Shown here: in pieces, positions 817 to 53,431 of the stretch
How the letters are laid out: each line of letters begins with the position of its first letter
How positions within the stretch are numbered: position 1 is the stretch's first letter
NCBI GenBank assembly: GCA_001821765.1
Contig: MHOA01000013.1
Location: 15,456 to 79,455 of the forward strand
Length of the DNA stretch: 64,000 nt
Reading direction: 5' to 3'
Origin: Candidatus Ryanbacteria bacterium RIFCSPLOWO2_12_FULL_44_26
Lineage (GTDB): Bacteria > Patescibacteriota > Minisyncoccia > Ryanbacterales > HO2-45-13
Notes under the pieces: generated by a model
Seen by the model: the letters and a program-made list of their open reading frames with translations, nothing else
What the model was told of the DNA's origin: nothing
Databases searched by the model: none
Translations under genes and position numbers: made by a program

Positions 817-2274
817 TCAAATTGTTTCTACCCGATAGAGCGTCAGGAATAACCCCTCAAATAGCGTTTGAGTATTGCGGCTAGAGGGATCATTAAGCTG
901 GAAAAACTTATTCTCAAGGGCATATTGGGAGACGACGAGGAAGCAGGGTTTTTTTAGCATTGTTTTTTCTGTAACGATAATGGGTTTTTGAGGATTTCTG
1001 TAGTAGTTTATCGTTTCATGTGATGGCCAAGAAAATATATACACTGGTATTGCCTCCGATTTTATAAGTTCCCCAATAATTTTTTCTTCCTCGGCAGATC
1101 TGGTAAGACTAGATCCCATAGGCAAAAGCATTGTGCCATGTTCAGTGGGAAAGAAGATCTGTATAACCGTTGCAGTGAAAGCAGTTATGACGAGAGCGGA
1201 GACAGTAATGACAGTCATATACGGCCACCTTAACTTTGCCTTTCTGATCAGTGGTATGCCTGTACTTACTATAAAGAGCGCCATAAACGGAAACAGCGGT
1301 GCAATATAGAAAAAAAGTTTGGACGCTGAACTTCCAAATAGAAACAACATAAAAAGCGCGATGGATAAAGTTGTCAATTGAGCTTTCCTGCGAAAGAAAT
1401 TTCTCCAACCAGTAAGCAAAAAAGCTATAAGTACAATAACAAAAACGGCTGTCCACGGTTCAACAAACTTGATGAGGTGTTTGGTATAGTAAAACGGTAT
1501 TTGCGTTCCTATAACAGGGTTTGCGTAACGGCCTACTATGTTGCTTATTAAGTGGTTCCAGAAACTTTCTCCGTATAGTATGTGTTGCTGAATAAGCCAC
1601 GGGAGCAATATGGCGGTCATCAGCAATATACCAAACCAGAAATATCTGCTTAAAAGCCAATCCCACCTTTGATATATCAGTGAATGAATGAAGAAAAGTG
1701 GAATGGCAAGAAGACCAATAACGCTTTTAAGCAGAACTCCAACGGCAATTCCCATTCCAACGCCAATGTACCATGCCGGCTGATGCACACCTCTTATAAA
1801 TGCGTAGAAAGTAAAAAGAATTGCTGTAGTGACAGGGATATCCATACGTACTTGCCTGCCGCTAAATATAAAAATGGTTGTGGTAAGCAGAATAAAAGCG
1901 GCCCCTAAAGCGACTGTAGGGTCGCGGAAAAGGCGTAGCCCCATAAGCCATGTAAGAATGATCGCTAAGACAATGAAGAAAGCAGATGGGAGCCGGAGCG
2001 CAAGTTCCGTCTCGCCGAATATTCCCACGCTTGCCGCCATCATCCAGAACAGAAGTGGCGGTTTGTCGAACCACGGCTCTCCGTCTTTTGTAAAAGAAAG
2101 TAAATCTTTTCTCTGCAGGCTTTCATGGAGCACCTGCGCATATGTGGCTTCGTCATAGTCGATGAACGCGGAGCTGCCCAACTGAAAAAAAGAAAGAAAA
2201 AGTGCAGTAAGGAGCAATAAAGTGAAGATAAACCTGTAGTGAGTTTCATTTGCTATGTTCATGTCAGTCATCAT
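817..2274 (-). CDS. GT-C fold ArnT/PMT_2-family polyprenyl-phosphate-sugar dependent glycosyltransferase (membrane)
   Basis: About 12 hydrophobic helices. The first-loop motif DYDEATYAQV...DGEPWFDKPPLLFWMM is typical of ArnT/PMT_2. Confidence 0.7.
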   Translation of the reverse strand: MMTDMNIANETHYRFIFTLLLLTALFLSFFQLGSSAFIDYDEATYAQVLHESLQRKDLLSFTKDGEPWFDKPPLLFWMMAASVGIFGETELALRLPSAFFIVLAIILTWLMGLRLFRDPTVALGAAFILLTTTIFIFSGRQVRMDIPVTTAILFTFYAFIRGVHQPAWYIGVGMGIAVGVLLKSVIGLLAIPLFFIHSLIYQRWDWLLSRYFWFGILLMTAILLPWLIQQHILYGESFWNHLISNIVGRYANPVIGTQIPFYYTKHLIKFVEPWTAVFVIVLIAFLLTGWRNFFRRKAQLTTLSIALFMLFLFGSSASKLFFYIAPLFPFMALFIVSTGIPLIRKAKLRWPYMTVITVSALVITAFTATVIQIFFPTEHGTMLLPMGSSLTRSAEEEKIIGELIKSEAIPVYIFSWPSHETINYYRNPQKPIIVTEKTMLKKPCFLVVSQYALENKFFQLNDPSSRNTQTLFEGLFLTLYRVETI

Positions 2275-4322: not shown

Positions 4323-4332
4323 ATAATGTATC

Positions 4333-7171: not shown

Positions 7172-8914
7172 TCATATATAAACTTTATTCTTTATTGAAC
7201 TAAATATCATATTTAAATTTGTTTTGTTATTTGTGCTTTGAATTTTGGATTTACTGTATTCATCTAGGATATCAAGAAGTGATTGCTGGGGTTTCCCATT
7301 GCTTCGCTGGATTTCTTCAATATGACGTACTGCCGTTGCAATATCTTTCTCTATCTCATAATAATATATTGCAAGATTTTCGTGGATAGGGAGGTAATGC
7401 GGGTTAAATGTTAATGCTTTTTCCCACGTGTCTCGTGCGTCCTCGAACCGGCCGAGTTTTAAAAAATAAAGAACGCCAAGGTTAAGATATGTATCGCTAT
7501 TGTATGGGTTTTTGGACAATTCCTTTTTAAATTCTTGTTCCGCCTCTTGAAAGCGGTTTGTGTAGTAATAAACAAGTCCGAGGTTGCCGTGAAGCACCTG
7601 TTCATCCGGATTTAGGGCGATGCCTTTTAGATACATCTCCTCGGCTTTATCATATATTCCCTTTTCCAGGTAAACGCTTCCCAGCCCGCTAAATGCTCTA
7701 GGGAGCGTGGGCGCGGTTTTTACCGCATGTTCCCAAAATTGCAGCCTATTTTTAAAGTTTTGGCTGTGTCGGATTGTAAGGAATGAGAAAACAAGGATAA
7801 GCAATACAATTGCTGCCGCAACACCGTGCTTTTCTGGTTTTATATTTTTTATAAAATCTATTTCCATAAGGATAATAAAAAGTCCTATCAGCGGAAGATA
7901 TATTCTGTGCTCGTAGAAGATGGGGGTCAACGATGGATCGTCTGTGAAAAACGAAGGCAGAAGAAAAACAAAAAACCACGCCGCGCCAAAGATAAGAAAT
8001 GGATATCGTTTTTCTTTGGAGAAAAACAAGAATAAAAGAACAAGAAGCATCGCGACCACTCCGTACATGAGCGTTGTATTTCCGAGCGTTGGCATTGCTG
8101 AAAGGTTAAACGGAAAGAAAATTTTCCCAACATAAAGCAGGATGGCGGGCGCATGTTCGACCATCGCTTTTATAATCTTAAATATTGGAAAGGCCGAAGC
8201 GCCGAGTGCCGCTTTTCTTGCGGCAAACCATATCAGCGTGAGGAGCAGCCATCCTGATGCGGGCCGGAGCAGACGGGCGTGCGCGTTTTTTATCCGCGCA
8301 ATCCCGTATGTGTAGAAGACTGCAAGCGGCAGAAAAAAAAGCGTTGACTCCTTCGTAAAAAGGGCTAAAAGATAAAAGAGCATGGAAACCGTATAGTGCT
8401 TCCACGTTGCAGTGTTTACATATCGGATGAAAAAGATGAATGCCAAAAGGATAAAAATCGTAAGCAGGCTGTCGTTTCTTCCGGGCAGCCATCCAACAGT
8501 TTGGGTGAGGATCGGGTGAGCGACAAATATGAGCGAAAAAAGAAGCGCAAGAGCTCGCTTGTATTGCATTGTTATAAGAAAGATGAAAAGCACGCTTGAA
8601 GCTGTAAGATGCAGGAGTATGTTTATAAGAAAATGCGGAAACGGAATTGCAGTGTTGCTAAAAAGCGCCCCGGCCATAAATGATACCGTAAGCATCGGAC
8701 GATAATAGGCAGACCGGTCAGTGGGATATAATATATCGTGCCTGAAAAACTGTAATATATTTGCAGGTTTGTTTAAAAAATGAAGGTTATGATGAATGAG
8801 TTTTGTGTCGTCGAAATAAACAAAGTCAAACGTCATGACAGGAGCATACATAATCCCTCCCAGCAACAGAATCCAAAGGAAAGGAAGATACCCTTTAAGC
8901 AGTGTGTGTTCCAT
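7172..8914 (-). CDS. TMTC-like GT-C glycosyltransferase fused to C-terminal TPR repeats
   Basis: N-terminal polytopic domain with FDFVYFDD (DD catalytic-loop motif). The C-terminal ~200 aa are TPR-like (AFSGLGSVYLEKGIYDKAEEMYLKGIALNP...). Confidence 0.6.
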   Translation of the reverse strand: MEHTLLKGYLPFLWILLLGGIMYAPVMTFDFVYFDDTKLIHHNLHFLNKPANILQFFRHDILYPTDRSAYYRPMLTVSFMAGALFSNTAIPFPHFLINILLHLTASSVLFIFLITMQYKRALALLFSLIFVAHPILTQTVGWLPGRNDSLLTIFILLAFIFFIRYVNTATWKHYTVSMLFYLLALFTKESTLFFLPLAVFYTYGIARIKNAHARLLRPASGWLLLTLIWFAARKAALGASAFPIFKIIKAMVEHAPAILLYVGKIFFPFNLSAMPTLGNTTLMYGVVAMLLVLLFLFFSKEKRYPFLIFGAAWFFVFLLPSFFTDDPSLTPIFYEHRIYLPLIGLFIILMEIDFIKNIKPEKHGVAAAIVLLILVFSFLTIRHSQNFKNRLQFWEHAVKTAPTLPRAFSGLGSVYLEKGIYDKAEEMYLKGIALNPDEQVLHGNLGLVYYYTNRFQEAEQEFKKELSKNPYNSDTYLNLGVLYFLKLGRFEDARDTWEKALTFNPHYLPIHENLAIYYYEIEKDIATAVRHIEEIQRSNGKPQQSLLDILDEYSKSKIQSTNNKTNLNMIFSSIKNKVYI

Positions 8915-10351: not shown

Positions 10352-10387
10352 TTACCAATTTCTAATTCCCAATTGGATTTTCAGCTG

Positions 10388-11815: not shown

Positions 11816-11852
11816 GATATAGTGTAGTATACGTTATTCTCCTTTATTTTCA

Positions 11853-12944: not shown

Positions 12945-12947
12945 GTT

Positions 12948-14279
12948 ATGAAAAAGGACATTCTTATCGTTGTATGCATTGCATTTGTGTTACGCCTCGC
13001 TTTTTCTTTTGTCGTGGCTGAGCGTGTGGGACCGGGCGCTTTTGAGGATGTACGGCCGATGAGTGATGCAGGACAATACATTGCTCTTACAAAGAATATA
13101 TTAGACAATCAGACGTTTACACTTTACGGAGAGCCGCACAGTTTTCGCACTCCCGGTTATCCGGCCTTTCTCGCATTTTGGTATTGGTTAAGCGGCAGCT
13201 GGTTTTTTAGTGTTGCAGTAGTGGGAAGCGCTTTGGGAGCCTTGAGTGCCGGTGTTACATATATCATTGGAAGAGAACTTTTTTCCCGCACTGTTGGTTT
13301 GCTGGCCGGAGCGTTTTTTGCATTTGAACCATATGGAGCGCACATGGCGGCGCGTCCCATGACAGAATCTGTTTACACAATACTTGTTGCGCTTCTCGCA
13401 TTTTTTATTGTTCGGTTTTACCGTTCTTCCTCAAAGCGTGCGGTGCTGTATATTTTCCTTTCAGGATTAGTTGTGGGGCTTGCCGTTTGGGTAAGGCCGC
13501 AACTATGGCCGTTTTATGTGTTCCCAATGACACTGGTTGTTTTTCTTACTTCCAGAAACGTTCATCAAGCCAAAACTGCCCTTCTGTCAGCAGTACTGTT
13601 CATTGGTGTCGCGGCGCTTGTTATTGTTCCATGGATTGTCCGGAATGCCGTGCTGTTTGGTGAGCCGTCCATAAGTTCCCAAGGTGGATGGAATCTCTAT
13701 TTTTATCACACAAAACGTTTTACCGGATCAGAGCGTTTCTTTGGTTTAGAAAACGATGAAATAAGGCGATTTTTGGAAATACGTCTTGGAAAGCCCGGAC
13801 CTGATGATATTCGAAGTATTGTATACCAGCCGATTTATTATACCGAGGCTTTTAACATCATTTTACAAAGGCCCGCATCTTACGCTTTTTGGCATATCAA
13901 AGAGTCGCTGGTGTTTTTTTATGATGATGGCATAAGAGATGTGCTTCGGCATATGGGCGCGGAATCTTCTTTTACGTTTGAGAGCATATCAGCAGCGCAG
14001 ATACTAAAATCGCCAACAGCTCTTTTGGCGTTGGGAGGCGTTGCTTTTTGGATAGGAGTATTTTTGCTTGCCGGATACGGCGCATGGCAGGGAATATGGA
14101 AGGGAACTCCTGTAATCAGGTGTGCGACCATTTTTTTTCTCTTGACTATTCTTTATGTGCCGTTTGTTGCTGGCACTCTTGCGGTGGCTCGTTTTCGCTT
14201 TCCATTGACGCCAATGATATTTCCGCTTTTTGGCTTTGGGCTTTGTATGTTATGGGAAAGATTAAAATGGGCCGTTTAG
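12948..14279 (+). CDS. GT-C fold ArnT/PMT_2-like glycosyltransferase (membrane)
   Basis: Polytopic. The first-loop motif MSDAGQYIALTKNILDNQTFTLYGEP is ArnT-like. Confidence 0.65.
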   Translation: MKKDILIVVCIAFVLRLAFSFVVAERVGPGAFEDVRPMSDAGQYIALTKNILDNQTFTLYGEPHSFRTPGYPAFLAFWYWLSGSWFFSVAVVGSALGALSAGVTYIIGRELFSRTVGLLAGAFFAFEPYGAHMAARPMTESVYTILVALLAFFIVRFYRSSSKRAVLYIFLSGLVVGLAVWVRPQLWPFYVFPMTLVVFLTSRNVHQAKTALLSAVLFIGVAALVIVPWIVRNAVLFGEPSISSQGGWNLYFYHTKRFTGSERFFGLENDEIRRFLEIRLGKPGPDDIRSIVYQPIYYTEAFNIILQRPASYAFWHIKESLVFFYDDGIRDVLRHMGAESSFTFESISAAQILKSPTALLALGGVAFWIGVFLLAGYGAWQGIWKGTPVIRCATIFFLLTILYVPFVAGTLAVARFRFPLTPMIFPLFGFGLCMLWERLKWAV

Positions 14280-15028
14280 AAAAAAAAATAATTGCAGTAC
14301 TCCCCGCTTATAACGCGGAAAAGACGCTCAAGAGAACGTTCTATGACATTCCAGAGGATTGGGTGGATGATGTTATTCTGGTGGATGACGCCAGTCGGGA
14401 TAAAACCGTTGAAGTGGCAAAAACGCTTCCGATCCGCACGTACGTTCATCCAAAAAATCTTGGCTATGGAGGAAATCAAAAAACGTGTTATCAAAAAGCA
14501 CTCCAGCTCGGTGGGGATATTATTGTGATGATTCATCCAGACCACCAATATGATCCCCGTCTTGTTCCGGAATTACTCAAGCCCATTGTTGAAGGGAGGG
14601 CTGACGCGGTGTTTGGATCTCGCATGATACGCAGAGAAGATGCTTTGAAAGGAGGGATGCCTCATTGGAAGTTTGCGGCAAATATTTTACTTACGAAAAT
14701 TGAAAATGTTGTCTTAAGACTTCATTTAACGGAATATCATTCCGGTTTTAGGGCATACAGCAGGAAAGTGCTTGAAACGGTGCCATTTAAAAAAAACTCT
14801 GATAATTTCGTTTTTGATACGGAGATCATCGTGCAAATGAAGCTTGCTGGACTGCGTATCATGGAAATTCCGATTCAAACGCGGTATTTCCCCGAGGCAT
14901 CAATGATCGGATTTTCAAAAAGCGTTCAATACGGTATTTCAATACTTTATGTGATGATAAAGTATCTTGTGCACGTGATGGGGTTTAAAAAGATCAGCCA
15001 GTTTGTCATAAAACATGACAATAAGTGA
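14267..15028 (+). CDS. GT2 polyprenyl-phosphate sugar synthase (DPM1/ArnC/GtrB-like)
   Basis: IIAVLPAYNAEKTL...VILVDDASRDKT...GSRM. The 5' extension at 14048 in the track is a read-through overlap; the start was set at MGRLEKK. Confidence 0.8.
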   Translation: MGRLEKKIIAVLPAYNAEKTLKRTFYDIPEDWVDDVILVDDASRDKTVEVAKTLPIRTYVHPKNLGYGGNQKTCYQKALQLGGDIIVMIHPDHQYDPRLVPELLKPIVEGRADAVFGSRMIRREDALKGGMPHWKFAANILLTKIENVVLRLHLTEYHSGFRAYSRKVLETVPFKKNSDNFVFDTEIIVQMKLAGLRIMEIPIQTRYFPEASMIGFSKSVQYGISILYVMIKYLVHVMGFKKISQFVIKHDNK

Positions 15029-16748
15029 TGGACAAAAACTGCAACGGCACATACGATACGTTTTTCTAGCGTTCACTGTTGTTATTGGCGGAATCCACGC
15101 ATATGCTGCGCGCAACAATATGAATCCGGACGGAATTTCTTATCTTGACATAGCAGAAGCGTACATTCGTGGGGAATGGGATTTGGCGATTAACGCTTGG
15201 TGGAGTCCGTTATATTCATGGATATTGGGTCTTGCGCTTTCTTTGTTCCATCCTTCCGCTTATTGGGAATTTCCTTTGGTGCATGCCGTAAATTTTGTAA
15301 TTTATATTGCCGCCTTTGGAAGTTTCTCTTTTTTCTTGCATGAGTTTATACGTGCGCTTCACAAAAATGGTCAGGAAGCGCACGCAAACAACAAACCGAC
15401 GCCCCTGCCGGCATGGACGCTCGCTCTTATAGGATACACGCTTTTTCTCATAGCCTCTCTTAATTTGATCACTATTTCTCTTGTAACGCCTGATATGCTT
15501 GTTTCAGTGTTCGTATATTTCGCCGCAGGGCTTATCGTTCGCATGCGCAGAACCGGGGCCAGCTGGACCTCATTTATATTGTTGGGGATAGTGCTGGGTT
15601 TTGGGTATCTTGCCAAAGCGCCCATTTTTCCTTTGGCGTTTGTATTTTTTGCTTCAAGCATTCTGGTTGTCGGCAGTTTTCGAAAAGCGCTTCCTAAAGT
15701 CTCAATCAGCGTGTTCTTTTTTCTTCTTATTGCCGCTCCTTTCGTGTTTTTTTTATCGGAAGTGAAGGGGAAACCCACCTTTGGGGAAAGTGGAAGGATA
15801 AATTATGCTTGGTATCTCAATGGTCCGGCCGAACACATTCACTGGCAGGGCGGGCCCGAAGGCCGCGGTGTTCCTACTCATCCGACAAGAAAAATTTTTG
15901 ATTCCCCAGCGGTTTACGAATTTGGATCGCCAATCGGCGGCACCTATCCGCCGTGGTACGATCCTTCGTACTGGCACGAAGGCATTACGCCTTATTTTGA
16001 TTTTAACGCACAACTATGGACGCTTTATAAAAGCTTCAATGCTTACTATGATATATTTTCAAGAGCGCATACAGTGCTTTTTTTGGGCTTTATCTTTTTC
16101 TTGATTGTCGGCGGCGTTCGGCCGTTTCTCAAAAATGCTAAAGATCAAGTCGTTATCCTGCTCCCGGCCCTTTCGGCGCTCGGAATGTTTGCGCTTGTCT
16201 TGGTAAAAGACAGGTATGTTGCCCCATTCATAGTTTTGTTGTGGCTTGGGGTGTTTGCGGCAGTGAGAGCATATGATTCTGTACTATCACGGAACATAGT
16301 GAAAGGATTGGTCGTTGCTATGGTCGTTGTTATGATGGCGGCTGTTTTTATATCAAGTGTGCCGGATGCATTAACAGCTGTCCGTGACATTGTAAAAAGT
16401 AGAGATGCATTCAGGCACATTCATTGGTATGTTGCCCAAGGGCTCGATCAGAGAAATATTCAAGCCGGGGACAAAGTTTCAGTTATAAGCCACCATGTAA
16501 ACGGTCTTACTGCTTATTGGGCGCGTTTGGCGAAAGTTCAAATTGTTTCGGAAATACCATCGGAGGAGGAAAGAACATTTTGGGCGAGTGATGATGCGCG
16601 CAGGAATCAGATTTTAAACTTATTTGTGAAAACAGGTGCAAGGGCCGTCATAGCGGAAAACGTACCGGACCCCTATACGCGGCCGGAGTGGAAAAACATT
16701 GACGGTACGAGTTATTATATTTACCTTTTATCTACCGAGAAAGATTAA
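15015..16748 (+). CDS. Large polytopic membrane protein, probable GT-C fold glycosyltransferase
   Basis: About 14 TM helices. The N-terminal loop DGISYLDIAEAYIRGEWDLAINAWWSPLYSW resembles GT-C first-loop architecture. Confidence 0.45.
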   Translation: MTISDGQKLQRHIRYVFLAFTVVIGGIHAYAARNNMNPDGISYLDIAEAYIRGEWDLAINAWWSPLYSWILGLALSLFHPSAYWEFPLVHAVNFVIYIAAFGSFSFFLHEFIRALHKNGQEAHANNKPTPLPAWTLALIGYTLFLIASLNLITISLVTPDMLVSVFVYFAAGLIVRMRRTGASWTSFILLGIVLGFGYLAKAPIFPLAFVFFASSILVVGSFRKALPKVSISVFFFLLIAAPFVFFLSEVKGKPTFGESGRINYAWYLNGPAEHIHWQGGPEGRGVPTHPTRKIFDSPAVYEFGSPIGGTYPPWYDPSYWHEGITPYFDFNAQLWTLYKSFNAYYDIFSRAHTVLFLGFIFFLIVGGVRPFLKNAKDQVVILLPALSALGMFALVLVKDRYVAPFIVLLWLGVFAAVRAYDSVLSRNIVKGLVVAMVVVMMAAVFISSVPDALTAVRDIVKSRDAFRHIHWYVAQGLDQRNIQAGDKVSVISHHVNGLTAYWARLAKVQIVSEIPSEEERTFWASDDARRNQILNLFVKTGARAVIAENVPDPYTRPEWKNIDGTSYYIYLLSTEKD

Positions 16749-17445
16749 AACGGATGATAGCGAGAACTGCTTTTACTCCATCCCACCAGTTAATTTTTTT
16801 CCCTGCACTGCGATCTCTCGGGTTATAGGTGATTGGCACCTCATATATTTTCCAAGGGCCTTTGGCTGCTTTAGCGGTGAGTTCTGGTTCTATCCCGAAC
16901 CGCTTGGATTTTAATTTGAACGATTGAATAATATCACGCCTGAATAACTTATAGCACGTTTCCATATCTGTAATGTATATGCCGCTAAAAATATTGGAGA
17001 GCATCGTAAGAAAACGGTTTGTAAGATACCGATGCGTGCGGAATACTCTCCTTGTTCCCGTCATTTGGAATCTGGAGCCGAAAACAATATCGGCGCCATA
17101 TTTTTCGAAAGGCTCAAGAAGTTTTGGATATTCGTAAGGGTCTGTTTCAAGATCCGCGTCTTGGATGATGACAATGTCCCCAGAAATATGCGAAAGCGCT
17201 GTTCTAATCGCTGCGCCCTTGCCCTCGTTTGTTTCTTTATGGATAATTTCCAGCCCTTTTACATAAAGAGAAGGTTTTTCTTTCAACTTCTTTTCAATGC
17301 CGTCTAGAATTGATTTTGTGCCGTCAGTGGAGTTGTCATTGACGATGATCACCTCCTTTTTTATGGGAACAGCAAAAACGGTTTGAACAAGTTTTTCTAC
17401 CGTCCGCTCTTCGTTGTAGACGGGTATAATGACTGAAATCAGCAT
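16732..17445 (-). CDS. GT2 polyprenyl-phosphate sugar synthase (DPM1-like)
   Basis: MLISVIIPVYNEERT...IIVNDNSTDGT...IIQDADLETDP...VFGSRF. Confidence 0.8.
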   Translation of the reverse strand: MLISVIIPVYNEERTVEKLVQTVFAVPIKKEVIIVNDNSTDGTKSILDGIEKKLKEKPSLYVKGLEIIHKETNEGKGAAIRTALSHISGDIVIIQDADLETDPYEYPKLLEPFEKYGADIVFGSRFQMTGTRRVFRTHRYLTNRFLTMLSNIFSGIYITDMETCYKLFRRDIIQSFKLKSKRFGIEPELTAKAAKGPWKIYEVPITYNPRDRSAGKKINWWDGVKAVLAIIRFNLSR

Positions 17446-18389
17446 TACATCATTGATCGAATAATATTATCAAGCGCATAGGTGGGCTTGTAGCCGATAA
17501 GAGCATGCGCTTTTTTTAAGTCCGGAATGCGTTTTTGCATGTCTTCAAATGTGCTGGAGTACGCTTTTTTATAAGGAATTTTGACGATGCGTGATGTGCT
17601 TTGAGTCATTTTTTTTATTTTTCTTGCTAAATCCATCATGCTGATGGATTCGGTAGAGCCGAGGTTTATTATTTCTCCCCGCGCTTTTGATGCGTTCATG
17701 AGTTTTATCATTGCTTTTATAATGTCTTCCACATGCGAAAAACACCGCATTTGCGTTCCCGTGCCGTACACGGTGATGGGCTTGTTCTCTTTTGCTTGAG
17801 CGATAAATGTGGGGATCACCATGCCGTACCGGCCTGTTTGGCGGGGACCAACCGTGTTAAAAAGGCGCACCACAACCGCAGGTAAGCGCTGTTTTTTCCA
17901 GTAGGCAAGCGCAAGACATTCATCAACCGATTTCGAAAGCGCATACCCCCACCGCTCACTGTAAACAGATCCGTATGTTCTGTCCGCCGTTTCTTTAAAT
18001 GGAAGCGAGCTGTTTTTTCCATAGACTTCAGAAGAAGAAGTGATAAGTATCGGCGTTTTACTTTTAGCGGCGAGTTCAAGGACATTTTTCGTCCCTTCAA
18101 TGTTTGTAAGCAGGGTTTTAAGCGGATTTTCTATGATATGTTTTACCCCAACAGCAGCCGCGAGATGGTATATCTGATCGGCCTTCTTCACAAACGGTGC
18201 CAACTCTTTGATATTGAGTATAGAACCCTTCTTAAAGAAGAAACGTTTATTTTTTATAAACGGTCTTATGTTGCCGCGGCTTCCGGTAGATAGATCATCA
18301 AACACAAATACCTGATTTTTTTTCTGAAGCAGTTTTTCAGCAAGATGACTTCCTATAAATCCCGCCCCACCCGTAATTAAAATTTTCAT
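17445..18389 (-). CDS. NAD-dependent sugar-nucleotide decarboxylase/epimerase, UXS/ArnA-decarboxylase-like SDR
   Basis: ITGGAGFIGSHL Rossmann motif, SSSEVYG, YALSK (YxxxK) and RLFNTVGPRQ, which is characteristic of UDP-glucuronate decarboxylases. Confidence 0.75.
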   Translation of the reverse strand: MKILITGGAGFIGSHLAEKLLQKKNQVFVFDDLSTGSRGNIRPFIKNKRFFFKKGSILNIKELAPFVKKADQIYHLAAAVGVKHIIENPLKTLLTNIEGTKNVLELAAKSKTPILITSSSEVYGKNSSLPFKETADRTYGSVYSERWGYALSKSVDECLALAYWKKQRLPAVVVRLFNTVGPRQTGRYGMVIPTFIAQAKENKPITVYGTGTQMRCFSHVEDIIKAMIKLMNASKARGEIINLGSTESISMMDLARKIKKMTQSTSRIVKIPYKKAYSSTFEDMQKRIPDLKKAHALIGYKPTYALDNIIRSMM

Positions 18390-18547
18390 ATTCCCATGTT
18401 ACTATAAAGTAATACACGTTCCCACACCACGGAACCATACCCAAGGCACATTGTTGTCTTCATATTGTTTTGAGTATTGCCGTTTAGCGCTGTTTTTTTT
18501 TATGCATATGTATACCACATCAAAACATAACGTTCAAAGTTGATATA

Positions 18548-20050
18548 TTGGTTATGTTTCATATCATATTTCCAATCATTGTCGTAGCTACGCTCACTTT
18601 TTCTTTTTACAGTCCCGTTGGTGATTTTACACCATTACAGAAGATAAGTCACATGCCCCGCTGTATTGGGAACTTCCTTACAACAATGAGCGCAGCACAT
18701 GACGCTTGCCGCGCGCTCGGAGTGGCCATTACTTCAACTCCAAAATTTTGGCGCGATGAATCCATCCCTTATGAAATAGCACGCACGTATGCAGAACTGG
18801 GGAAGCTTGATGTTGTGACAGAGCCGGGTGTTGTTGACGGCCGGCCCTATCTTACGCATGCAACGGGGTTTCCGCTTACCATTTCTTTAGCCGGATTTTT
18901 TAAACTGTTTGGTGTCGGGGTGGTTCAATCAAGGATATTTATGACGTTTTGGATTGTTGCCGTACTGATGGTGCTGTATTTAGTGCTGAGAAGTTTTTTT
19001 GGGCCGTTTCAGGCCGGTTTTGGCACCCTGTTAGTTTCTACGTTTAGCTCTTTTTATGCAAATGGCCGTACGTTTACCGGTGAAATTCCGGGCTTTCTCT
19101 TTTTACTGCTGGCTCTTTTTTTCATTTATAGAAAGAAACAATATATTCTTGGAGGCATGTTGCTCGCGATTGCTGTGGTGACAAAGCCGTCTGTGTACTT
19201 ATTGCTATTGCCCGCAGCAGCGTTTGAGTTTTTTATTTGGGATTTTAAGAAATCACTACGGTTTGGCGCTCGTTTAGCAATAGGAGTGCTCCCTGTAATT
19301 TTGTTATGGATTTTTATTATTTTACCCCAGCCTTTTAGCGTTGAGAGTTGGGCTGGCATGATTGATCTTTACAGACATCCGTTTAATGAACCGTCGCTGT
19401 TTTCAAGGTTGCCGGAGGCGTTTTTTGATCTTTTAACCAACTCCACGATATGGTACTTTGGGTTTTTGCTCGGGCTTATTTTGTTTTCCTACAGTAAAGG
19501 CGTTTTTAGAGATGATCAGAAGAGGTTATTGCATTTTTTCTTGCTTTTTGGCGTTTTGAGTATTATTTATTTTTTACGAAGCCCCGGGTGGTTTCGGTAC
19601 CTTCTCGTTACAGAGTTGTTCATCTTGGCGTTTACATTCCCAGCTGCAGATTCTTTAGTCCAAAAAAGAAGGTCGGCGGCTGTTTCGTTTGCCGGATTAT
19701 TAGTGGTGATTCAGGTATTGAATTTTTTCTTCTTTTCTGATATTCCTTCAGGGAGGGTAAGTATTAGCACGGCAGAGTTTATTAACAAGCAACTGCTTTT
19801 AGGCAACGATTCCACCATAGGGTTTATACACATGCCAACCGTAGCGCCGCTTATCTCATCCCACCGCAAGTATCAAATTGCACAGATTGGAGGGAAAGAA
19901 ACCTACGGCAAGCACCCTCTTATGCTTCCGGAAGAAAAACTTCCAGATTACATTATTGGCTATCAAGGTGAATATAACGACATCTTCGAGAGGCACTATG
20001 AGTTTGCGTTTGTAACGCCCGAAGGGTTTAAAATTTATAGAAAAAAATGA
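18548..20050 (+). CDS. GT-C fold ArnT/PMT_2-like glycosyltransferase (membrane)
   Basis: RDESIPYEIARTYAELGKLDVVTEPGVVDGRPYLTHATGFPL matches the ArnT DE...Y.EIA...G first-loop pattern. Polytopic. The exact start is uncertain. Confidence 0.55.
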   Translation: MVMFHIIFPIIVVATLTFSFYSPVGDFTPLQKISHMPRCIGNFLTTMSAAHDACRALGVAITSTPKFWRDESIPYEIARTYAELGKLDVVTEPGVVDGRPYLTHATGFPLTISLAGFFKLFGVGVVQSRIFMTFWIVAVLMVLYLVLRSFFGPFQAGFGTLLVSTFSSFYANGRTFTGEIPGFLFLLLALFFIYRKKQYILGGMLLAIAVVTKPSVYLLLLPAAAFEFFIWDFKKSLRFGARLAIGVLPVILLWIFIILPQPFSVESWAGMIDLYRHPFNEPSLFSRLPEAFFDLLTNSTIWYFGFLLGLILFSYSKGVFRDDQKRLLHFFLLFGVLSIIYFLRSPGWFRYLLVTELFILAFTFPAADSLVQKRRSAAVSFAGLLVVIQVLNFFFFSDIPSGRVSISTAEFINKQLLLGNDSTIGFIHMPTVAPLISSHRKYQIAQIGGKETYGKHPLMLPEEKLPDYIIGYQGEYNDIFERHYEFAFVTPEGFKIYRKK

Positions 20051-20071
20051 ATCCTGTTAGAGATCCAAGTT

Positions 20072-20173
20072 TTATGAATTTCGTTTTTCAAATGAGCGGC
20101 GCATATCCAAGAATGATGTTTACTGGCAATTATCATTCACGGAAATTTCCGATTTCCTATCTCTAATATAATG
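20072..20173 (+). repeat. Copy B of the conserved ~105-nt intergenic element
   Basis: TTATGAATTTCGTTTTTCAAATGAGCGGCGCATATCCAAGAATGATGTTTACTGG...GGAAATTTCCGATTTCCTATCTCTAATATA-ATG. The hairpin is shortened to GGAAAT/ATTTCC. Confidence 0.7.
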
Positions 20174-20869
20174 AAAGTTTCAATAATCATTCCTGTTTAC
20201 AACGAGGCAAAAACAATTCAGCGTATTGTTGATGTTGTTCGTGTCGCTTCATTCGGTTTTGAGGCCCAAAGAGAAATAATTGTCATTGACGATGGATCCG
20301 CTGACGGCACTTATGAGGCGCTGAAAAGCATTAAAGGAATTAAGGTGTTGCATTTTGAACGCAATCAAGGAAAGGGCGCGGCGCTAAAGGCAGGCTTTGG
20401 GCAGGCATCTGGGGATTTTGTTATTATTCAGGATGCGGATTTGGAATATGATCCAGCCGATTACGCTATTTTATTAAAACCCATGTATGAGGGGAAAGCC
20501 GACGTTGTGTTTGGTTCTCGGTTTAGGGGAGAATACCAGCGGGTGCTCTATTTTTGGCATTATTTCGGAAATTTTCTTTTAACGCTTCTTTCCAATATGT
20601 TTACTAATTTAAACCTCTCGGATATGGAAACGGGATATAAAGTGTTTAAGCGGGAGGTTGTCAAATCGTTCACTCCTCATTTAAGGTCAAAGCGTTTTGG
20701 TATAGAACCGGAAATAACAGCGCGTGTGGCACGGGGCGGTTGGCGTATCTATGAAGTGCCAATCAATTATTATGGACGCACATATGAGGAGGGCAAAAAG
20801 ATACGATGGTACGACGGGGTAAAAGCCATTGCAGCAATTTTATATTTTAATCTTTTTGATCGCCGATGA
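20171..20869 (+). CDS. GT2 polyprenyl-phosphate sugar synthase (DPM1-like)
   Basis: MKVSIIIPVYNEAKT...IVIDDGSADGT...IIQDADLEYDP...VFGSRF. Paralog of 16732..17445. Confidence 0.8.
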   Translation: MKVSIIIPVYNEAKTIQRIVDVVRVASFGFEAQREIIVIDDGSADGTYEALKSIKGIKVLHFERNQGKGAALKAGFGQASGDFVIIQDADLEYDPADYAILLKPMYEGKADVVFGSRFRGEYQRVLYFWHYFGNFLLTLLSNMFTNLNLSDMETGYKVFKREVVKSFTPHLRSKRFGIEPEITARVARGGWRIYEVPINYYGRTYEEGKKIRWYDGVKAIAAILYFNLFDRR

Positions 20870-22185
20870 AGACGGCATTTCCTCGTTTTGTTCCAGTCGT
20901 TGCTGTCATTGTAGTGTTGATCAGCGGTGCATATTCTTTTTATCATCATGACCGTCCACGCATTGATGCGCTTGGTTACGATCAGATCGGATGGAATCTT
21001 GCCCGTGGCTTGGGATATGTTGAGGATGAATCCAACGCCGCTACACCCGAAAAAGACTTTGCAATAAATAGAGTGGGGCCCGGTTATGAATTCTTCCTTG
21101 CCGGCGTTTATACTGTTTTTGGACATAAAATCTGGGTGGTATGGATGTTGCATGCCCTTCTTCGGGGGGTGAGTGTTGTGCTTGTATTTTTAATCTCAAG
21201 ATTGCTTTTTTCTCAAAATGAAAAGATCGGGATTGTTGCGGCGATACTGTTTGGATTTGTTCCGGATCTTATCGTAGTAAACGGATTGTTGCTTACTGAA
21301 ACGCTATTTATTTTCCTGCTGCTGTTGGTTACTTATATAAGTCTTGTTGCCGTTCGGGGTCAAAGCCGTTCCATGCCGGCTTTGGCGGGATTGTTTTTTG
21401 CTTTTGCCATTATGACAAGACCCATTGCAATACTTCCTTTCCTTGCATTTATTGCTCTTTTTATATGGAGAAAAAACTGGAAAGAGGTTTTGCTGTCGGT
21501 GCTTTTTCCGCTTATTATTATCGGAACATGGTCATCGTTTGTTTCCCGTCGGTACAGTACCTTTATTTTAACAACCGGTGTCGGCACGTATGACTTATGG
21601 GTGGGAAATAATATTGACGCAAAAGGCGGTTTTGAGAAGACTGCCGAACAGCTTGAGGCGCGACACAGCCTCAGCGTTGCTGAACTGGATACGATTTCAA
21701 GGAGTAAATACGTAGCATTCATTACAAGTCATCCGTTGCGGTTTCTTGAGTTGCAGTGGAGAAAAACAGCGCTTTATTTTAGCCTTATAAGACCCGGCGG
21801 GTATTGGATTCATCTGATGGCGCATCCATTTGAACGGTTATTGACGCTTTATGCCTCTGCGTTTTGGACGGCGGCTCTTTTTATATTTGGTCTTGCCGGC
21901 GCTTGGGTGTTGTACAGAAAAAGGAATGATATATCATGGTATCTTCTTGCTGTTTTTGCGTTGTTACAGCCGCTTGCAGTCATTCCCATTATAGTTGAGA
22001 CGCGATACCGGTACCCGTTTTTCCCTTTTTTGGCAGTTTTCGCGGCGTATTTTTTATTATTGCGTCCCATCATGCGCGGCGCTTTTTTTGGCGCACTCGC
22101 TGTTATTATCATTTTTACCGGATACGATGCGATTTATAATGCAAGCGAGATCGCATCGAAAATAATGAGTGTGTTTGCATTCTAG
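20866..22185 (+). CDS. GT-C fold ArnT/PMT_2-like glycosyltransferase (membrane)
   Basis: YDQIGWNLARGLGYVEDESN first-loop motif, polytopic. ATGA start/stop overlap with the upstream GT2 gene. Confidence 0.6.
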   Translation: MKTAFPRFVPVVAVIVVLISGAYSFYHHDRPRIDALGYDQIGWNLARGLGYVEDESNAATPEKDFAINRVGPGYEFFLAGVYTVFGHKIWVVWMLHALLRGVSVVLVFLISRLLFSQNEKIGIVAAILFGFVPDLIVVNGLLLTETLFIFLLLLVTYISLVAVRGQSRSMPALAGLFFAFAIMTRPIAILPFLAFIALFIWRKNWKEVLLSVLFPLIIIGTWSSFVSRRYSTFILTTGVGTYDLWVGNNIDAKGGFEKTAEQLEARHSLSVAELDTISRSKYVAFITSHPLRFLELQWRKTALYFSLIRPGGYWIHLMAHPFERLLTLYASAFWTAALFIFGLAGAWVLYRKRNDISWYLLAVFALLQPLAVIPIIVETRYRYPFFPFLAVFAAYFLLLRPIMRGAFFGALAVIIIFTGYDAIYNASEIASKIMSVFAF

Positions 22186-27901: not shown

Positions 27902-29188
27902 TTATTTTTTAAAAAGCAGAAAGGGCAGGAAATAATTTGCGAATCTCCCGATAATTCTTCCCCCCACCGCTCCCCAGATGCCGTAGGATGGAATAAGCAC
28001 GAGGAGTGCGAGAATCTGTATGAAAGGAACCGCAGTATTGTATGCGTATATCTTTTTCATGTTTCCTTCCGCTTTGAGCGCCGCGTTAAAGACACCAAAC
28101 GGAAAAGGGATAAGTGAAAGAGTAAAAATTTGTGAGAAGAGAACTGATTCCATGTATTTTGGAAATAGGACACGGAACAAAACAGGCGCTGCGAGTATAT
28201 ATATCACAACCAGCACGCCGGTTAGTATTGATGCTTTCAGCGCCTTTCCGGGAAGAGTTTTTTTGAGTTCTTGTGTTGTGTGTCTATCATTCGTTTTCAA
28301 CGAGAGTTTCGGAAATACAACAGTTTGGACAGTGCTTAAAAAAGCCTTCATTTGTTCTGGAATTGCGATTGCAAAAGAATACACAGCCAGCGCGCTTGAG
28401 CCGAGGAGGTTATAGAGAATGATTGCGTCAAGGTAATTTGAAGCAGTCTGTGGTACGTAGAGCGCGCTTAATTTTAGGCCGTATCTGATTGATTCCGGAT
28501 CATCAACGCTTTCTTTTGATATGAGCCGTACCGTTTTTCGGTAGAATATTGCGCTTGGAATTGCATGAGAAAGGAAATAGGTGCTTATAAGAAGTATCAT
28601 GCTTTGAGCATGCGGAAGCTTCCATACAATAATTGCAACCATCGCGCTCATCATAGAAAGGCCATAGATAACGTGCGCCCAGATGTTGTAGTATGTTTTT
28701 TTTCGAAATTTCATTTTACCTTCAAAAAACCCTCTCCAGACGCTCAAGCTTTCATTAAACGGCGCGATGAATGAGGCGATGACGAACGCCGCTCCAAGCA
28801 CCGCGTTTCCTTGCCAAAAAAGATAACTTCCGATGAGGATTCCCGACAGGGTAATTCCAAAAGATGAAAAAAGTATAATCCGCGCACCTCTTATGAACGC
28901 ATAATCGTAGCCGCGGGAAACAGCTCTTCGGATTGCAACACCCATCCCCGGAAGCGCAAAAACACCCAATAAGCCCAAAACGCTCAGAACGTATCGGTAG
29001 TCGCCATATGCGTCTTTAAGCAGGAACCGGGCGTATAGCATTGAAAGCGCCAGAGCAATGATGGTCCCGATCGCTTTTCCTAGTATCAGCCAAAAACTCC
29101 CGCGCGCTACATAGGCGGTGTCTATTTTGAGAAAGCGTTCCAGCGCCTTGAGCGCGCTTTCCATAACGCGCATCCCTCTAGAGATCAT
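27902..29188 (-). CDS. Wzx-like (MOP superfamily) polysaccharide/oligosaccharide flippase
   Basis: About 12 TM helices. The N-terminal region matches polysaccharide biosynthesis protein (PF01943-like) architecture. Confidence 0.65.
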   Translation of the reverse strand: MISRGMRVMESALKALERFLKIDTAYVARGSFWLILGKAIGTIIALALSMLYARFLLKDAYGDYRYVLSVLGLLGVFALPGMGVAIRRAVSRGYDYAFIRGARIILFSSFGITLSGILIGSYLFWQGNAVLGAAFVIASFIAPFNESLSVWRGFFEGKMKFRKKTYYNIWAHVIYGLSMMSAMVAIIVWKLPHAQSMILLISTYFLSHAIPSAIFYRKTVRLISKESVDDPESIRYGLKLSALYVPQTASNYLDAIILYNLLGSSALAVYSFAIAIPEQMKAFLSTVQTVVFPKLSLKTNDRHTTQELKKTLPGKALKASILTGVLVVIYILAAPVLFRVLFPKYMESVLFSQIFTLSLIPFPFGVFNAALKAEGNMKKIYAYNTAVPFIQILALLVLIPSYGIWGAVGGRIIGRFANYFLPFLLFKK

Positions 29189-29970: not shown

Positions 29971-29985
29971 ACGACATATTATAAC

Positions 29986-30693: not shown

Positions 30694-30870
30694 GTTTATT
30701 TAACGCGTGAATACTTGTCTGCTGTTTTGGGTGTATCAAAGTGAAGGGTTGTCATCGAATAGGTGTTATCTTCGAAAAAGCGGTTTTTTTCGGATTTGGT
30801 TCCATGCCATGTCTTATTAGGACTTTCCGAATTTCTTCCGCAGCCCTTTTAAGACAGAGTGCATTGAAAC

Positions 30871-36984: not shown

Positions 36985-36993
36985 TTTGCGTAT

Positions 36994-39253: not shown

Positions 39254-39264
39254 TCCGCGTTTTA

Positions 39265-42414: not shown

Positions 42415-43341
42415 ATGCGCACGCTAAAACAACCGAAAGTCAGCATTCTCTTGCCCTCATATAATAGAGCTTACTTGTTACCTTTCACGATAGAGAACAT
42501 TCTTGAACAAACGTGGAAGGATTGGGAGCTCATTATTGTTGATGACGGGTCGCTTGATAATACTGATGAGGTAATAAAAAATTTCGATGATCGAAGGATA
42601 ACATATATAAAACACCAAGTAAATGCAGGTGAGGCTGCTGCAAGAAACACAGCTCTTGCTGCGGCGAGAGGAGAATATATCGCAAACCAAGATTCAGATG
42701 ACGAATGGTTCCCCGAGAAGCTGGAGGAGGAGGTGTATTTGCTTGATCGATCACCGGCGAGAGTTGGTGCTGTGTATTCTTCGTTTCATAAAACCTTATT
42801 TGACGGAAGCGAAGAAATTGTTCCTTCAGCAATTCACCACCAAAAAGAAGGAAACCTTGTAAACACTTTTTTACGCAGCGACTTTTATATCACTGGACAA
42901 GCTCTCCTAATTAAAAAAGAGTGCTATAAGAACGTTGGTGGATATGATGAGAAATTGCGCGTGCTTAATGATGCTGAGTTTCTTATAAGGTTAGCAAGTC
43001 AATATGAATTTGTTCATAATCCTCACGTTCGTGTTCGTATAAAACGTTTTGAAGACAGTATTTCGAGAAACTTTAAGATGAGATTGGTTTCCAGAGAGTA
43101 TATTTTGCACAAACACGAAGATCTTTTTAAAAAATTCCCCGACTCATTTGCCCGTTACTCATATCGCATAGGGCACACGCATGCACTTTTGGGGAATACA
43201 GACAAAGCGCGCATGTATCTCCGCAAAGCGTTTGTTTTTAGTCCTCTCCATATAAAATATATCGCGGCATTTTTGCTTTCCCTTACCGCTTCATCATGGC
43301 TGTACCGGACGCTCGGTCGTCTTAAAACCAAATGGATGTAA
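42415..43341 (+). CDS. Glycosyltransferase family 2
   Basis: VSILLPSYNRAYLL...LIIVDDGSLDNT...DSDDEW (DxD). Confidence 0.8.
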   Translation: MRTLKQPKVSILLPSYNRAYLLPFTIENILEQTWKDWELIIVDDGSLDNTDEVIKNFDDRRITYIKHQVNAGEAAARNTALAAARGEYIANQDSDDEWFPEKLEEEVYLLDRSPARVGAVYSSFHKTLFDGSEEIVPSAIHHQKEGNLVNTFLRSDFYITGQALLIKKECYKNVGGYDEKLRVLNDAEFLIRLASQYEFVHNPHVRVRIKRFEDSISRNFKMRLVSREYILHKHEDLFKKFPDSFARYSYRIGHTHALLGNTDKARMYLRKAFVFSPLHIKYIAAFLLSLTASSWLYRTLGRLKTKWM

Positions 43342-44885: not shown

Positions 44886-44888
44886 CGT

Positions 44889-46289: not shown

Positions 46290-47016
46290 AGAAAAAACAT
46301 TTTTGGTGGTACTGCCGGTTTATAATGAAGAAACAGATTTATCAAAAAATTTTCCCGTTGTACACCGCTTTTTAGATGAACATTTTGATCAGCTTCATTG
46401 GGAAGTCATTATTGCCGAACAGGCATCAACTGACCACACATTGGAAATCGCCCAAAAACTTTCGCAAAACTATCCAAGGACATCATGTATTCACTTAGAT
46501 GAAAAGGGGAGAGGCGGGGCATTGCGGGAGGCCTGGACCGGATCTGACGCCGATGTCGTTTCCTATATGGACATTGATCTTTCATCTCGTCTTGAATTTT
46601 TCCCAAAGCTTATGTATGTCCTTCAAGGCGGCGCTGATATTGCAGTGGGATCTCGTTTATCGAAAGGATCAAAAGTGCATGATCGGACTCTTGTGAGGAA
46701 ATTTTCTTCATGGGCTTTTAAGTTTTTTTTAAAAACATTGTTTCGTATCAGATTTGACGATGCCCAGTGCGGCTTTAAGGCCATAAGAAGAGATGTTTTT
46801 TTAAAAATCGCTCCTTTGATCAAAAGCAACGGATGGGTGTTTGATACCGAACTGCTTGTCATTGCCCAGAAAGCCCGTTTCAGTATTGCCGTTGTGCCGA
46901 TTGAATGGTTTGATGATCAGAAAAGCAGTGTAAGAATCATCCGTTATGCGCTGGAGGGCTTCACCGCGGGATTGCGGCTTTTTATAACACGGCCATGGAA
47001 GAGCATTACGAAATAA
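46264..47016 (+). CDS. GT2 polyprenyl-phosphate sugar synthase (DPM1-like)
   Basis: FLVVLPVYNEETDL...VIIAEQASTDHT...YMDIDLS...AVGSRL. Start set at MENTRRQ; the 5' end overlaps the upstream gene by 26 nt. Confidence 0.75.
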   Translation: MENTRRQDKEKTFLVVLPVYNEETDLSKNFPVVHRFLDEHFDQLHWEVIIAEQASTDHTLEIAQKLSQNYPRTSCIHLDEKGRGGALREAWTGSDADVVSYMDIDLSSRLEFFPKLMYVLQGGADIAVGSRLSKGSKVHDRTLVRKFSSWAFKFFLKTLFRIRFDDAQCGFKAIRRDVFLKIAPLIKSNGWVFDTELLVIAQKARFSIAVVPIEWFDDQKSSVRIIRYALEGFTAGLRLFITRPWKSITK

Positions 47017-49315: not shown

Positions 49316-49320
49316 ACTGT

Positions 49321-53261: not shown

Positions 53262-53431
53262 AGTCTCAACAATAAAAGAAAAAAACGCATTTTGCAATTT
53301 TTGTCACGGCGGTGTATCTCCAAAAAACTATCCTACAATAATACTGTCTTTCTTGTTTAGGGAAATGACGCTCTTATCAATTGTGAGGAGGTGAGAAATG
53401 CTACTTGCGCAGGCGCAAAAACGAGACAAGA

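Follow-up and report, generated by a model that had tools for sequence, protein, structure and literature searches.

Three-component systems of extracytoplasmic glycosylation have been described (PMC11127046, PMC7389260), among them GtrA/GtrB/GtrC in O-antigen glucosylation and CsbB(GtlA)/GtcA/YfhO(GtlB) in teichoic-acid glycosylation (PMC7389260), both of which combine a glycosyltransferase family 2 (GT2) enzyme producing a C55-P-sugar with an adjacent outer-face glycosyltransferase of the GT-C fold. Here we present a locus with gene neighbours of the same kind in a 64,000-nt stretch (contig MHOA01000013.1) of Candidatus Ryanbacteria bacterium RIFCSPLOWO2_12_FULL_44_26, a groundwater member of the Parcubacteria in the Candidate Phyla Radiation (CPR; Patescibacteria) with a reduced genome. 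The whole stretch is called the window below, and positions and gene names refer to it. The best explanation of the window, which we hold to be probable as a whole, is that it represents most of a variable cell-surface glycan island, in which lipid-phosphate-sugar synthases feed outer-face GT-C enzymes acting on an envelope glycopolymer. What the analysis shows directly is which genes are present, to which families and folds they are assigned, how far their motifs are conserved and that their linkage is conserved and non-random. A preliminary description had listed ten open reading frames (ORFs), all of which are present, as five repeated two-gene modules of a GT2 and a GT-C: a (12948/14267), b (15015/16732(-)), c (20171/20866), d (44889/46264) and e (50898/52341(-)). 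The finding is real and its mechanistic reading is probably right, but the module structure was over-simplified.

In the mechanism proposed here, each of the five GT2s, which would belong to the DPM1/ArnC/GtrB class, would move one sugar from a nucleotide sugar to a polyprenyl (undecaprenyl-type) monophosphate at the cytoplasmic face. The lipid-linked sugars would then be flipped across the membrane; the sole recognisable flippase candidate for them in the window is the Wzx/MOP-family protein at 27902..29188 on the minus strand (PF01943 and PF13440). On the outer face, at least seven neighbouring GT-C-fold enzymes would take their donor sugars from this supply, extending or decorating an envelope glycopolymer built by glycosyltransferase family 4 (GT4) enzymes, the Wzx-like flippase and the TagF-like and LtaS/EptA-like enzymes of the island.

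All five paired GT2s match PF00535 above the gathering score, with E-values from 1e-21 to 8e-37. Their closest NCBIfam models are AglJ, PpgS, a Dol-P-hexose transferase, PgfS or ArnC, and their closest solved relatives in the PDB are the Pyrococcus DPMS (5mlz), ArnC and GtrB, with 5mlz as the top match for four of them. The nearest relatives are all polyprenyl-phosphate (Pren-P) sugar synthases. A metal motif of the form D-x-D-[LH]-[QES] is found in all five, as DADLE in 16732 and 20171, DADLQ in 52341, DIDLS in 46264 and the variant HPDHQ in 14267; DIDLS appears to resemble the eukaryotic DPM1 motif 'DADLSH'. Specifically, GT2_14267 (14267..15028, plus strand) encodes 253 aa (PF00535, 2e-24; NCBIfam AglJ/PpgS; PDB 5mlz) and overlaps both flanking GT-C genes. 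GT2_16732 (16732..17445, minus strand) encodes 237 aa (PF00535, 8e-35; AglJ/ArnC best), GT2_20171 (20171..20869, plus strand) 232 aa (PF00535, 8e-37; AglJ, 1e-36; PDB 5mlz, ArnC and GtrB) and GT2_46264 (46264..47016, plus strand) 250 aa (PF00535, 1e-21; PDB 5mlz, 5e-20). These four proteins of 232-253 aa contain zero transmembrane (TM) segments, like the soluble catalytic subunits of DPM1/Ppm1; synthases of the DPM1/Ppm1 type without TM segments are an established class. The fifth, GT2_52341 (52341..53297, minus strand), is a full-length protein of the ArnC/GtrB type (318 aa) and the only one with the C-terminal TM hairpin of that subtype (TM 243-261 and 275-293). It matches ArnC 9hwj over residues 13-316 (E-value 4e-44), GtrB (2e-30) and the NCBIfam ArnC model (1e-49). 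A sixth GT2 (42376), which has no GT-C neighbour, served as an internal negative control for the Pren-P-type class; the metal motif is absent from it, and it matches best to TuaG, EpsE and WcaA, enzymes that extend chains. Judged by these family matches and motifs, the five paired GT2s are predicted to be polyprenyl-phosphate sugar synthases of the DPM1/ArnC/GtrB class.

The window holds eight GT-C candidates, of which at least seven are assigned to the GT-C fold, 7172 being the weak one. In all eight, 8-11 hydrophobic segments were counted and TM1 leads into a loop 50-90 residues long, and six (817, 12948, 18548, 20866, 44889 and 50898) match PF13231 (PMT_2) above the gathering score; homologs are annotated as GT39. 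Four of the five GT2 partners are such PMT_2-type proteins: 12948 (12948..14279, plus strand; 443 aa, ~8 TM, loop-1 SDAGQY; PF13231, 1e-8), 20866 (20866..22185, plus strand; 439 aa, ~10 TM, PMT_2/GT39-like; 4e-12), 44889 (44889..46289, plus strand; 466 aa; 5e-7) and its paralog 50898 (50898..52328, plus strand; 476 aa; 9e-8). The fifth partner, 15015, is assigned by its model (see below). Four further unpaired GT-Cs had been counted in the preliminary description, and we find three, one of which (18548; 18548..20050, plus strand; 500 aa, ~10 TM, loop-1 DE; PF13231, 3e-9) belongs with 20171/20866. The most ArnT/PMT-like of the set is 817 (817..2274, minus strand; loop-1 DYDEATY), which matches PMT_2 (2e-23) and PMT (PF02366, 1e-12), as well as the equivalog models of ArnT (NF009784, 4e-24, 85 bits against a cut-off of 567) and Pmt (NF058602, 3e-4, 19.6 against 800 bits); the other GT-Cs match neither of these two NCBIfam models. 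The third, 7172 (7172..8914, minus strand), is a polytopic membrane protein with ~9 TM, FVYFDD after TM1 and a C-terminal TPR domain. Its TPR fusion, earlier likened to TMTC, is borne out, but its membrane part gives sub-threshold matches only (PMT_2 E-value 1.7; hhalign probability 53%) and a full-length PDB search returned only TPR proteins, leaving it a putative TMTC-like GT-C.

The acidic motif of loop 1 is conserved in four GT-C families. In 12948 the Asp of D-[AS]-x-x-Y is retained in 6 distant homologs; in 15015 (NPDGISYLD) D39 is near-invariant and Y43 invariant across the family; in 18548 D70 and E71 are at least 90% conserved in 15 homologs; and in 20866 (VDAxAYD) D34, A35 and Y38 are invariant, as are D134, E145 and R185. 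By inspection only, loop-1 acids were also seen in 817 (DYDE) and 7172 (FDD), and the motif of 50898 is partly kept, with one Asp (D46) and an aromatic residue. A loop-1 acid is found in six of the seven GT-C-fold proteins, when the four conserved families are taken together with 817 (by inspection) and 50898 (in part). A profile search of the PDB with the 20866-family alignment gave no match. This family is homologous to that of 44889 (hhalign probability 99.3%), with the common positions E148/E145 and K188/R185 and a C-terminal E-x-R-Y. The AlphaFold model of GTC_44889 (predicted local distance difference test, pLDDT, 77.5) has ArnT, STT3 and AglB as its top Foldseek matches (E-value 3e-4), and an exhaustive profile search for its family gave 75 representatives at E-values of 1e-30 or below and 765 at 1e-10 or below.

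The partner in pair b, 15015 (15015..16748, plus strand), encodes a 577-aa protein with ~11 TM segments and a C-terminal alpha/beta domain, and the protein itself has no match in Pfam, NCBIfam or PDB sequence searches. An AlphaFold model built from 36 family members (pLDDT 88.5; predicted template modelling score 0.91) was compared with the PDB by Foldseek, and its best 24 matches are all GT-C structures, led by ArnT 5ezm (E-value 3e-7; TM-score 0.51/0.54) and followed by AftB, ALG12, AglB, PglB, STT3, ALG9, Pmt1/2 and EmbC. On the strength of this model, 15015 can confidently be assigned a GT-C fold. The family is well conserved and has more than 1,700 homologs, which are 40-48% identical and come from Acidobacteriota, Cyanobacteria, Planctomycetota, Nitrospirota, Clostridia and further groups; no Pfam domain is seen in any of them and NCBIfam has no model for the family; the motifs N[ASG]xWSP[LF]Y and YDPSYW are conserved. 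A Pren-P-type GT2 is directly adjacent to the family gene in ~13-15 of 80 species genomes from many phyla and lies within 6 kb in ~22 of the 80; for a random gene we estimate that well under 1% would stand beside such a GT2. The convergent layout of 15015 and its GT2 recurs in Bacterium BMS3Abin15 (L008) and at a further locus (L091). In a Methylomirabilales genome (L004) the 15015 homolog is established between genes for UDP-glucose dehydrogenase (UGDH) and a short-chain dehydrogenase/reductase (SDR) on one side and for a GT2 and an LPG_synthase_TM protein on the other; at the same locus (10492-13821), the GHMP-kinase/SIS/HAD/TAL set present at 54414-57324 of the window adjoins the 15015-family GT-C. 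As a separate observation, at five loci of Pyrinomonadaceae/Blastocatellia (L015, L018, L028, L033 and L045) the GT2 beside the 15015-family GT-C has ~485-498 aa, twice the size of those in the window, and presumably carries a fused extra domain, perhaps a membrane one.

The linkage of the two gene classes is unlikely to be a matter of chance. When the order of the 57 genes was shuffled, all five Pren-P-type GT2s adjoined a GT-C in 0.04% of cases (p ~4e-4), and with shuffling confined to the window's glycan part, five-of-five adjacency arose in 0.1%; together with the recurrence of GT2-GT-C linkage in related Patescibacteria and other phyla, these permutations lead us to reject chance adjacency. 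Start/stop overlaps, among them the ATGA at which the start of 20866 overlaps the stop of 20171, had been reported for several pairs and are present in the sequence, together with overlaps of 13, 14 and 26 nt between the starts of 14267, 15015 and 46264 and their preceding genes. The five GT2s do stand beside polytopic GT-C genes, as the preliminary description had it, but GT2_14267 lies between two GT-Cs, so that its assignment to a pair is arbitrary, and pairs b and e are convergent and not co-transcribed.

Relatedness within the two sets does not follow the pairs. GT2_16732 and GT2_20171 have 48-52% identity, whereas BLAST shows no relationship between the GT-Cs beside them, 15015 and 20866; conversely, GTC_44889 and GTC_50898 have 48-49% identity, whereas their GT2 neighbours have only 26-28% and differ in architecture. 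The remaining comparisons within the sets gave 21-32% identity. Since the close paralogs belong to different pairs, the pairs did not co-diverge, a point that the preliminary description had proposed to check by phylogenies and that was settled here with identity matrices. The same matrices rule out tandem duplication of a two-gene module, and with it the picture of five repeats of one module falls away. Nor does the idea of one specificity for each pair fit; it is too simple for a unit with one synthase and two GT-Cs (18548-22185) and for the four-gene modules around pairs d and e.

The region 12948-17445 consists of two synthases and two GT-Cs. Directly upstream of GT2_16732, with a 1-nt junction, Pfam identifies an SDR-family nucleoside-diphosphate-sugar dehydratase/epimerase (17445..18389, minus strand), whose best NCBIfam models, LegB, dTDP-Glc dehydratase and UDP-xylose synthase, all score below their cut-offs; it probably makes the sugar-nucleotide substrate of GT2_16732. 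For the next unit, 80 metagenomic relatives of 20866 were collected, nearly all from Patescibacteria, 48 of them with at least 1 kb of flanking sequence on both sides. Among these 48, a Pren-P-type GT2 is directly adjacent in 21 and no more than 2.5 kb away in 39. Two layouts prevail, [GT2][18548-like GT-C][20866-like GT-C] and [18548-like][GT2][20866-like], the latter being the order in the window. In a second Ryanbacteria genome, GT2/PMT_2/PMT_2 genes are established at the equivalent place between RtcB-GT4 and GT4, while the genes of 12948-17445 are wholly absent. These layouts and the second genome lead us to treat 18548-22185 as one unit, in which two GT-Cs go with a single synthase. The make-up of the island is modular, and its content varies between close relatives.

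Pairs d and e belong to paralogous four-gene modules (43332-47729 and 48656-53297), each made up of an alkaline-phosphatase (AP)-superfamily enzyme, a GT-C, a GT2 and a methyltransferase. The AP-superfamily proteins, absent from the preliminary description, are membrane-anchored. The first (43332..44885, plus strand; 517 aa) matches the Sulfatase family PF00884 at 3e-9 with 37 bits (gathering score 25), and the second (49321..50895, plus strand; 524 aa) matches it at 0.003 with 17 bits, below the gathering score. They are 57% identical, each opens its module's AP-superfamily/GT-C core immediately upstream of the GT-C, and with ~6 N-terminal TM segments and with residues of the metal-ligand and nucleophile type (D188, T229, H356, H361 and D425-H426) invariant in 4 sequences they appear to share an LtaS/EptA-like transferase architecture; no NCBIfam or PDB sequence match was obtained for them, even with a profile. 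Pfam also identifies the S-adenosylmethionine-dependent methyltransferases, which are the last gene in module d (46995..47729, plus strand) and divergent from the rest in module e (48656..49315, minus strand).

Every gene of both modules has its counterpart in GCA_964581395.1, the orthologs being 45-73% identical. At one locus of that genome (L089) the order is Ppm-NTP-transferase, Ppd, Fe-alcohol dehydrogenase, AP-superfamily enzyme, GT-C, GT2 and methyltransferase, and at another (L088) it is methyltransferase(-), AP-superfamily enzyme, GT-C, methyltransferase(-), GT2(-), NifS and NifU. The methyltransferase orthologs occupy the same positions with 51% (L089, module d) and 52% (L088, module e) identity, and the specific GT2 partners are kept as well, the 46264 ortholog being 63% identical (L089, same position) and the 52341 ortholog 73% (L088). 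The duplicated core consists of the AP-superfamily enzyme (57%) and the GT-C (48%), each copy having its own type of GT2. In the window, a phosphonate pathway is located at 35374-40026 and comprises a phosphoenolpyruvate (PEP) mutase (Ppm) fused to a PntC-type nucleoside-triphosphate (NTP) transferase, a phosphonopyruvate-decarboxylase-like thiamine-pyrophosphate enzyme (Ppd), an Fe-alcohol dehydrogenase and a second NTP transferase. The PEP mutase has the [10 protein letters not shown] motif, and fusion to a PntC-type nucleotidyltransferase has been reported for ~60% of Ppm enzymes (PMC6697681). The Fe-alcohol dehydrogenase suggests a hydroxyethylphosphonate-type product. In GCA_964581395.1 (L089, 2706-6490) the phosphonate genes run straight into the AP-superfamily/GT-C/GT2/methyltransferase module. 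Speculatively, the linkage of modules d and e to this bona fide PEP mutase could mean that a sugar, a methyl and a phosphonate or phospho-alcohol group are jointly added outside the membrane. Modules d and e are separated by 0.9 kb, and this gap contains a YopX-family (phage-type) ORF (47759-48118, minus strand) followed by a 99-aa ORF.

Pfam and NCBIfam scans showed glycan-related functions almost throughout positions 1-59,500. These include GT4 enzymes, SDR dehydratases/epimerases, RmlD, an RmlC-like protein, the Wzx-type flippase, UGDH, methyltransferases, a TagF-like enzyme, a CDP-alcohol phosphatidyltransferase, a carbamoyltransferase, the phosphonate pathway and a heptose-type pathway. 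Sugar-nucleotide supply is represented by RmlD with the RmlC-like protein, UGDH, the SDR enzymes and the heptose-type set, the last a GDP-heptose-like group at 54414-58085 with a GmhB-like HAD phosphatase, an HddA-like GHMP kinase, a transaldolase/FSA, a GmhA-like SIS isomerase and a nucleotidyltransferase. The window sequence is identical in contig MHNJ01000005.1 (GCA_001819715.1) and in a 351-kb Rifle groundwater scaffold. Its GC content is even at ~42% (39-45% along the window) and it holds no tRNA genes; by these two checks nothing points to an island that is mobile or was acquired horizontally, integrase and transposase genes not having been specifically searched for.

Several other genes of the island deserve a record. 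A trio at 2478-6013 encodes a carbamoyltransferase, a small SxtJ-like membrane protein (4333-4749) and a protein of the GDSL family; it also adjoins GT2/GT-C pairs on a further contig from Patescibacteria (L171), which suggests O-carbamoylation or acyl modification of the glycan. Inside the island are two RtcB RNA-ligase paralogs in tandem (8918-11815, minus strand), and in another genome of Ryanbacteria (L170) the island has RtcB at its flank. A DUF4956/VTC-domain/CotH-kinase trio stands mid-island (29299-32190, minus strand). The island also includes a radical-SAM/SPASM protein (33769-35241, minus strand), and the edge of the window, beyond NifS/NifU and a regulator of the ArsR type, holds a B12-binding radical-SAM protein (62598-64000, plus strand).

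Six observations weigh against a chain of synthases feeding outer-face GT-Cs. First, every NCBIfam score of the GT2s lies far below the curated equivalog cut-off (for instance, 126 against 325 bits for AglJ and 169 against 529 bits for ArnC), and therefore no sugar can be assigned to any of them. Secondly, the GtrB/ArnC membrane hairpin is missing from four of the five. Thirdly, a scan of every ORF in the window that has 70 aa or more and is not among its annotated genes gave no small flippase of the GtrA/GtcA family, the only small membrane ORFs being the SxtJ-like one and an unassigned one of 108 aa. Fourthly, neither a priming phosphoglycosyltransferase nor a ligase could be recognised in the window, which makes the acceptor polymer hypothetical. 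Fifthly, most 15015-family members of Acidobacteriota (those of Pyrinomonadaceae included) and most of those of cyanobacteria have no neighbouring GT2, from which it follows that the donor can also come in trans. Finally, in 44889 the sequence S-P-Q-H-S-Q replaces DDAxxY, a loss repeated in the orthologs P0122 and P0126, and the close family as a whole does not conserve the motif, while more distant relatives in the 44889/50898 family still have DDAxxY. The preliminary description had held that GT-C-like proteins lacking the first-loop acids would speak against it; this applies to 44889 and its orthologs, but the motif is conserved in 12948, 15015, 18548 and 20866. GTC_44889 could be an enzyme that has diverged, or it could act as a partner without a catalytic role. 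The proposal that the GT2s load a polyprenyl phosphate and the GT-Cs transfer the sugar outside passed the computational tests for most genes but not for all; the enzymatic activities, sugars, flippase and acceptors in it are inferred.

Other explanations were weighed against the same genes. The GT-Cs could be protein O-glycosyltransferases (like PMT, the mycobacterial Pmt or TMTC) that act on secreted, pilus or S-layer proteins, with one synthase for each GT-C. The Pfam assignments are all PMT_2, 817 also matches PF02366 (PMT), the TPR-fused candidate 7172 recalls TMTC, and the homologs carry a GT39 annotation. However, the Pmt equivalog is matched by 817 alone, at 3e-4 and far under the cut-off, PMT_2 also takes in ArnT-like lipid or polymer glycosyltransferases, polymer-type genes (Wzx, TagF-like, GT4s, CDP-alcohol transferase, LtaS-like) are abundant, and neither MIR nor WW-type acceptor-binding domains were detected in the window; we consider this explanation unlikely. 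Because the island resembles a polymer-assembly locus, we lean slightly towards envelope glycopolymers rather than secreted proteins as the acceptors.

The GT-Cs might instead do more than attach single side-chain sugars and might polymerise a heteroglycan from Pren-P-sugars in an extracytoplasmic assembly line, as MptA/B, Emb, Aft and PimE do in the mycobacterial synthesis of lipomannan, lipoarabinomannan (LAM) and arabinan. The presence of eight GT-C candidates with five donor synthases in one island, a conserved block in which one synthase is common to two GT-Cs, AftB, EmbC and PimE among the fold matches, and the lack of a recognised Wzy-type polymerase in the window would all suit it. Against this, similarity to the Emb, Aft and Mpt families is absent at the sequence level, the GT4s and the Wzx-like flippase point to conventional assembly on undecaprenyl diphosphate (Und-PP) of at least the core glycan, and the content differs between close relatives in the fashion of a decoration cassette, so that an assembly line of this sort seems improbable to us. 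In an extended form, which we regard as less probable still, the CPR bacterium would build much of its envelope glycan outside, with at least seven GT-Cs and five donors working as a LAM-like line, two modules adding a methylated sugar and a phosphonate or phospho-alcohol head group, possibly from a phosphonolipid, and the Asp-less 44889 being non-catalytic or differently catalytic. Very improbable, lastly, is that the four short TM-less GT2s are ordinary Leloir enzymes extending an Und-PP-linked or soluble acceptor and stand beside GT-Cs through sheer density of glycosyltransferase genes: GT2 function is notoriously difficult to infer from sequence, the GtrB/ArnC hairpin is missing and the family scores are all under the curated cut-offs, but two independent libraries both give nothing other than Pren-P-sugar synthases as their best relatives while control GT2_42376 matches chain-extenders, TM-less synthases are a recognised class, and the adjacency is both significant in the window and conserved over dozens of Patescibacteria loci.

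Under the preferred explanation, Pren-P-sugar synthases feeding outer-face GT-Cs on an envelope glycopolymer, this Ryanbacterium would give ~60 kb to surface glycans and rely heavily on extracytoplasmic glycosylation dependent on lipid-phosphate sugars. Related Patescibacteria have the same kinds of module in other combinations, a pattern resembling an O-antigen-like variable locus, and such a locus could underlie host recognition or phage evasion. Much of the diversity of bacteria lies in the CPR/Patescibacteria, and full-text searches found no prior description of GT-C or polyprenyl glycosylation in them. The analysis also yields a widespread GT-C family without a Pfam model (15015), a conserved phosphonate-linked four-gene module and defined enzyme pairs.

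Compared with the described systems, the locus comes close to several and coincides with none. With Gtr and CsbB it has in common the arrangement set out at the beginning, as well as, with csbB/yfhO, the frequent overlap of GT2 and GT-C genes in one operon, with the CsbB/GtcA/YfhO system of Firmicutes, an organism without outer membrane and, in GT2_52341, the full GtrB/ArnC architecture. It differs from them in having no GtrA/GtcA gene in the window, four synthases without TM segments, GT-Cs of the PMT_2 type rather than the YfhO or GtrC families, and five synthases with at least seven GT-Cs per locus instead of one each. The PgfS/PgfM1/PgfE/PgfM2 system of Streptococcus mutans and the polyprenyl-phosphoribose synthase/MATE flippase/GT136 system (PMC11127046) resemble it in being multi-gene modules in which a lipid-P-sugar synthase and an epimerase are joined by one GT-C or two; the top NCBIfam matches include PgfS, SDR 17445 is co-transcribed with GT2_16732, and the sole flippase candidate belongs to the MOP superfamily. 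Here, in contrast, the GT-C families are others, there is no PRPP-dependent synthase in the window and the scores lie below equivalog thresholds.

The pair of undecaprenyl-phosphate L-Ara4FN synthase and lipid A transferase, ArnC/ArnT, is approached through GT2_52341, whose closest solved relative is ArnC, through ArnT as the top structural match of both GT-C models (15015 and 44889), and through the match of GTC_817 to the ArnT NCBIfam model. The distance is apparent from scores far under the equivalog cut-offs of both enzymes and from the absence of an ArnA/B/D/E/F set in the window. CPR bacteria are not known to have lipid A. Ppm1 with Pmt, MptA/B, PimE and Emb/Aft in Corynebacteriales, and DPM1 with PMT/ALG in eukaryotes, offer a further parallel, in that TM-less DPM1-type synthases serve many GT-Cs and one donor is able to serve several transferases; their GT-Cs have no detectable orthology to those of the window, and the synthase genes dispersed in those organisms stand beside the transferases here. 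The mechanism is a well-known one, and what is unusual about this locus is the number of its units in a reduced genome, the presence of two higher-order module types and a GT-C family without a Pfam model.

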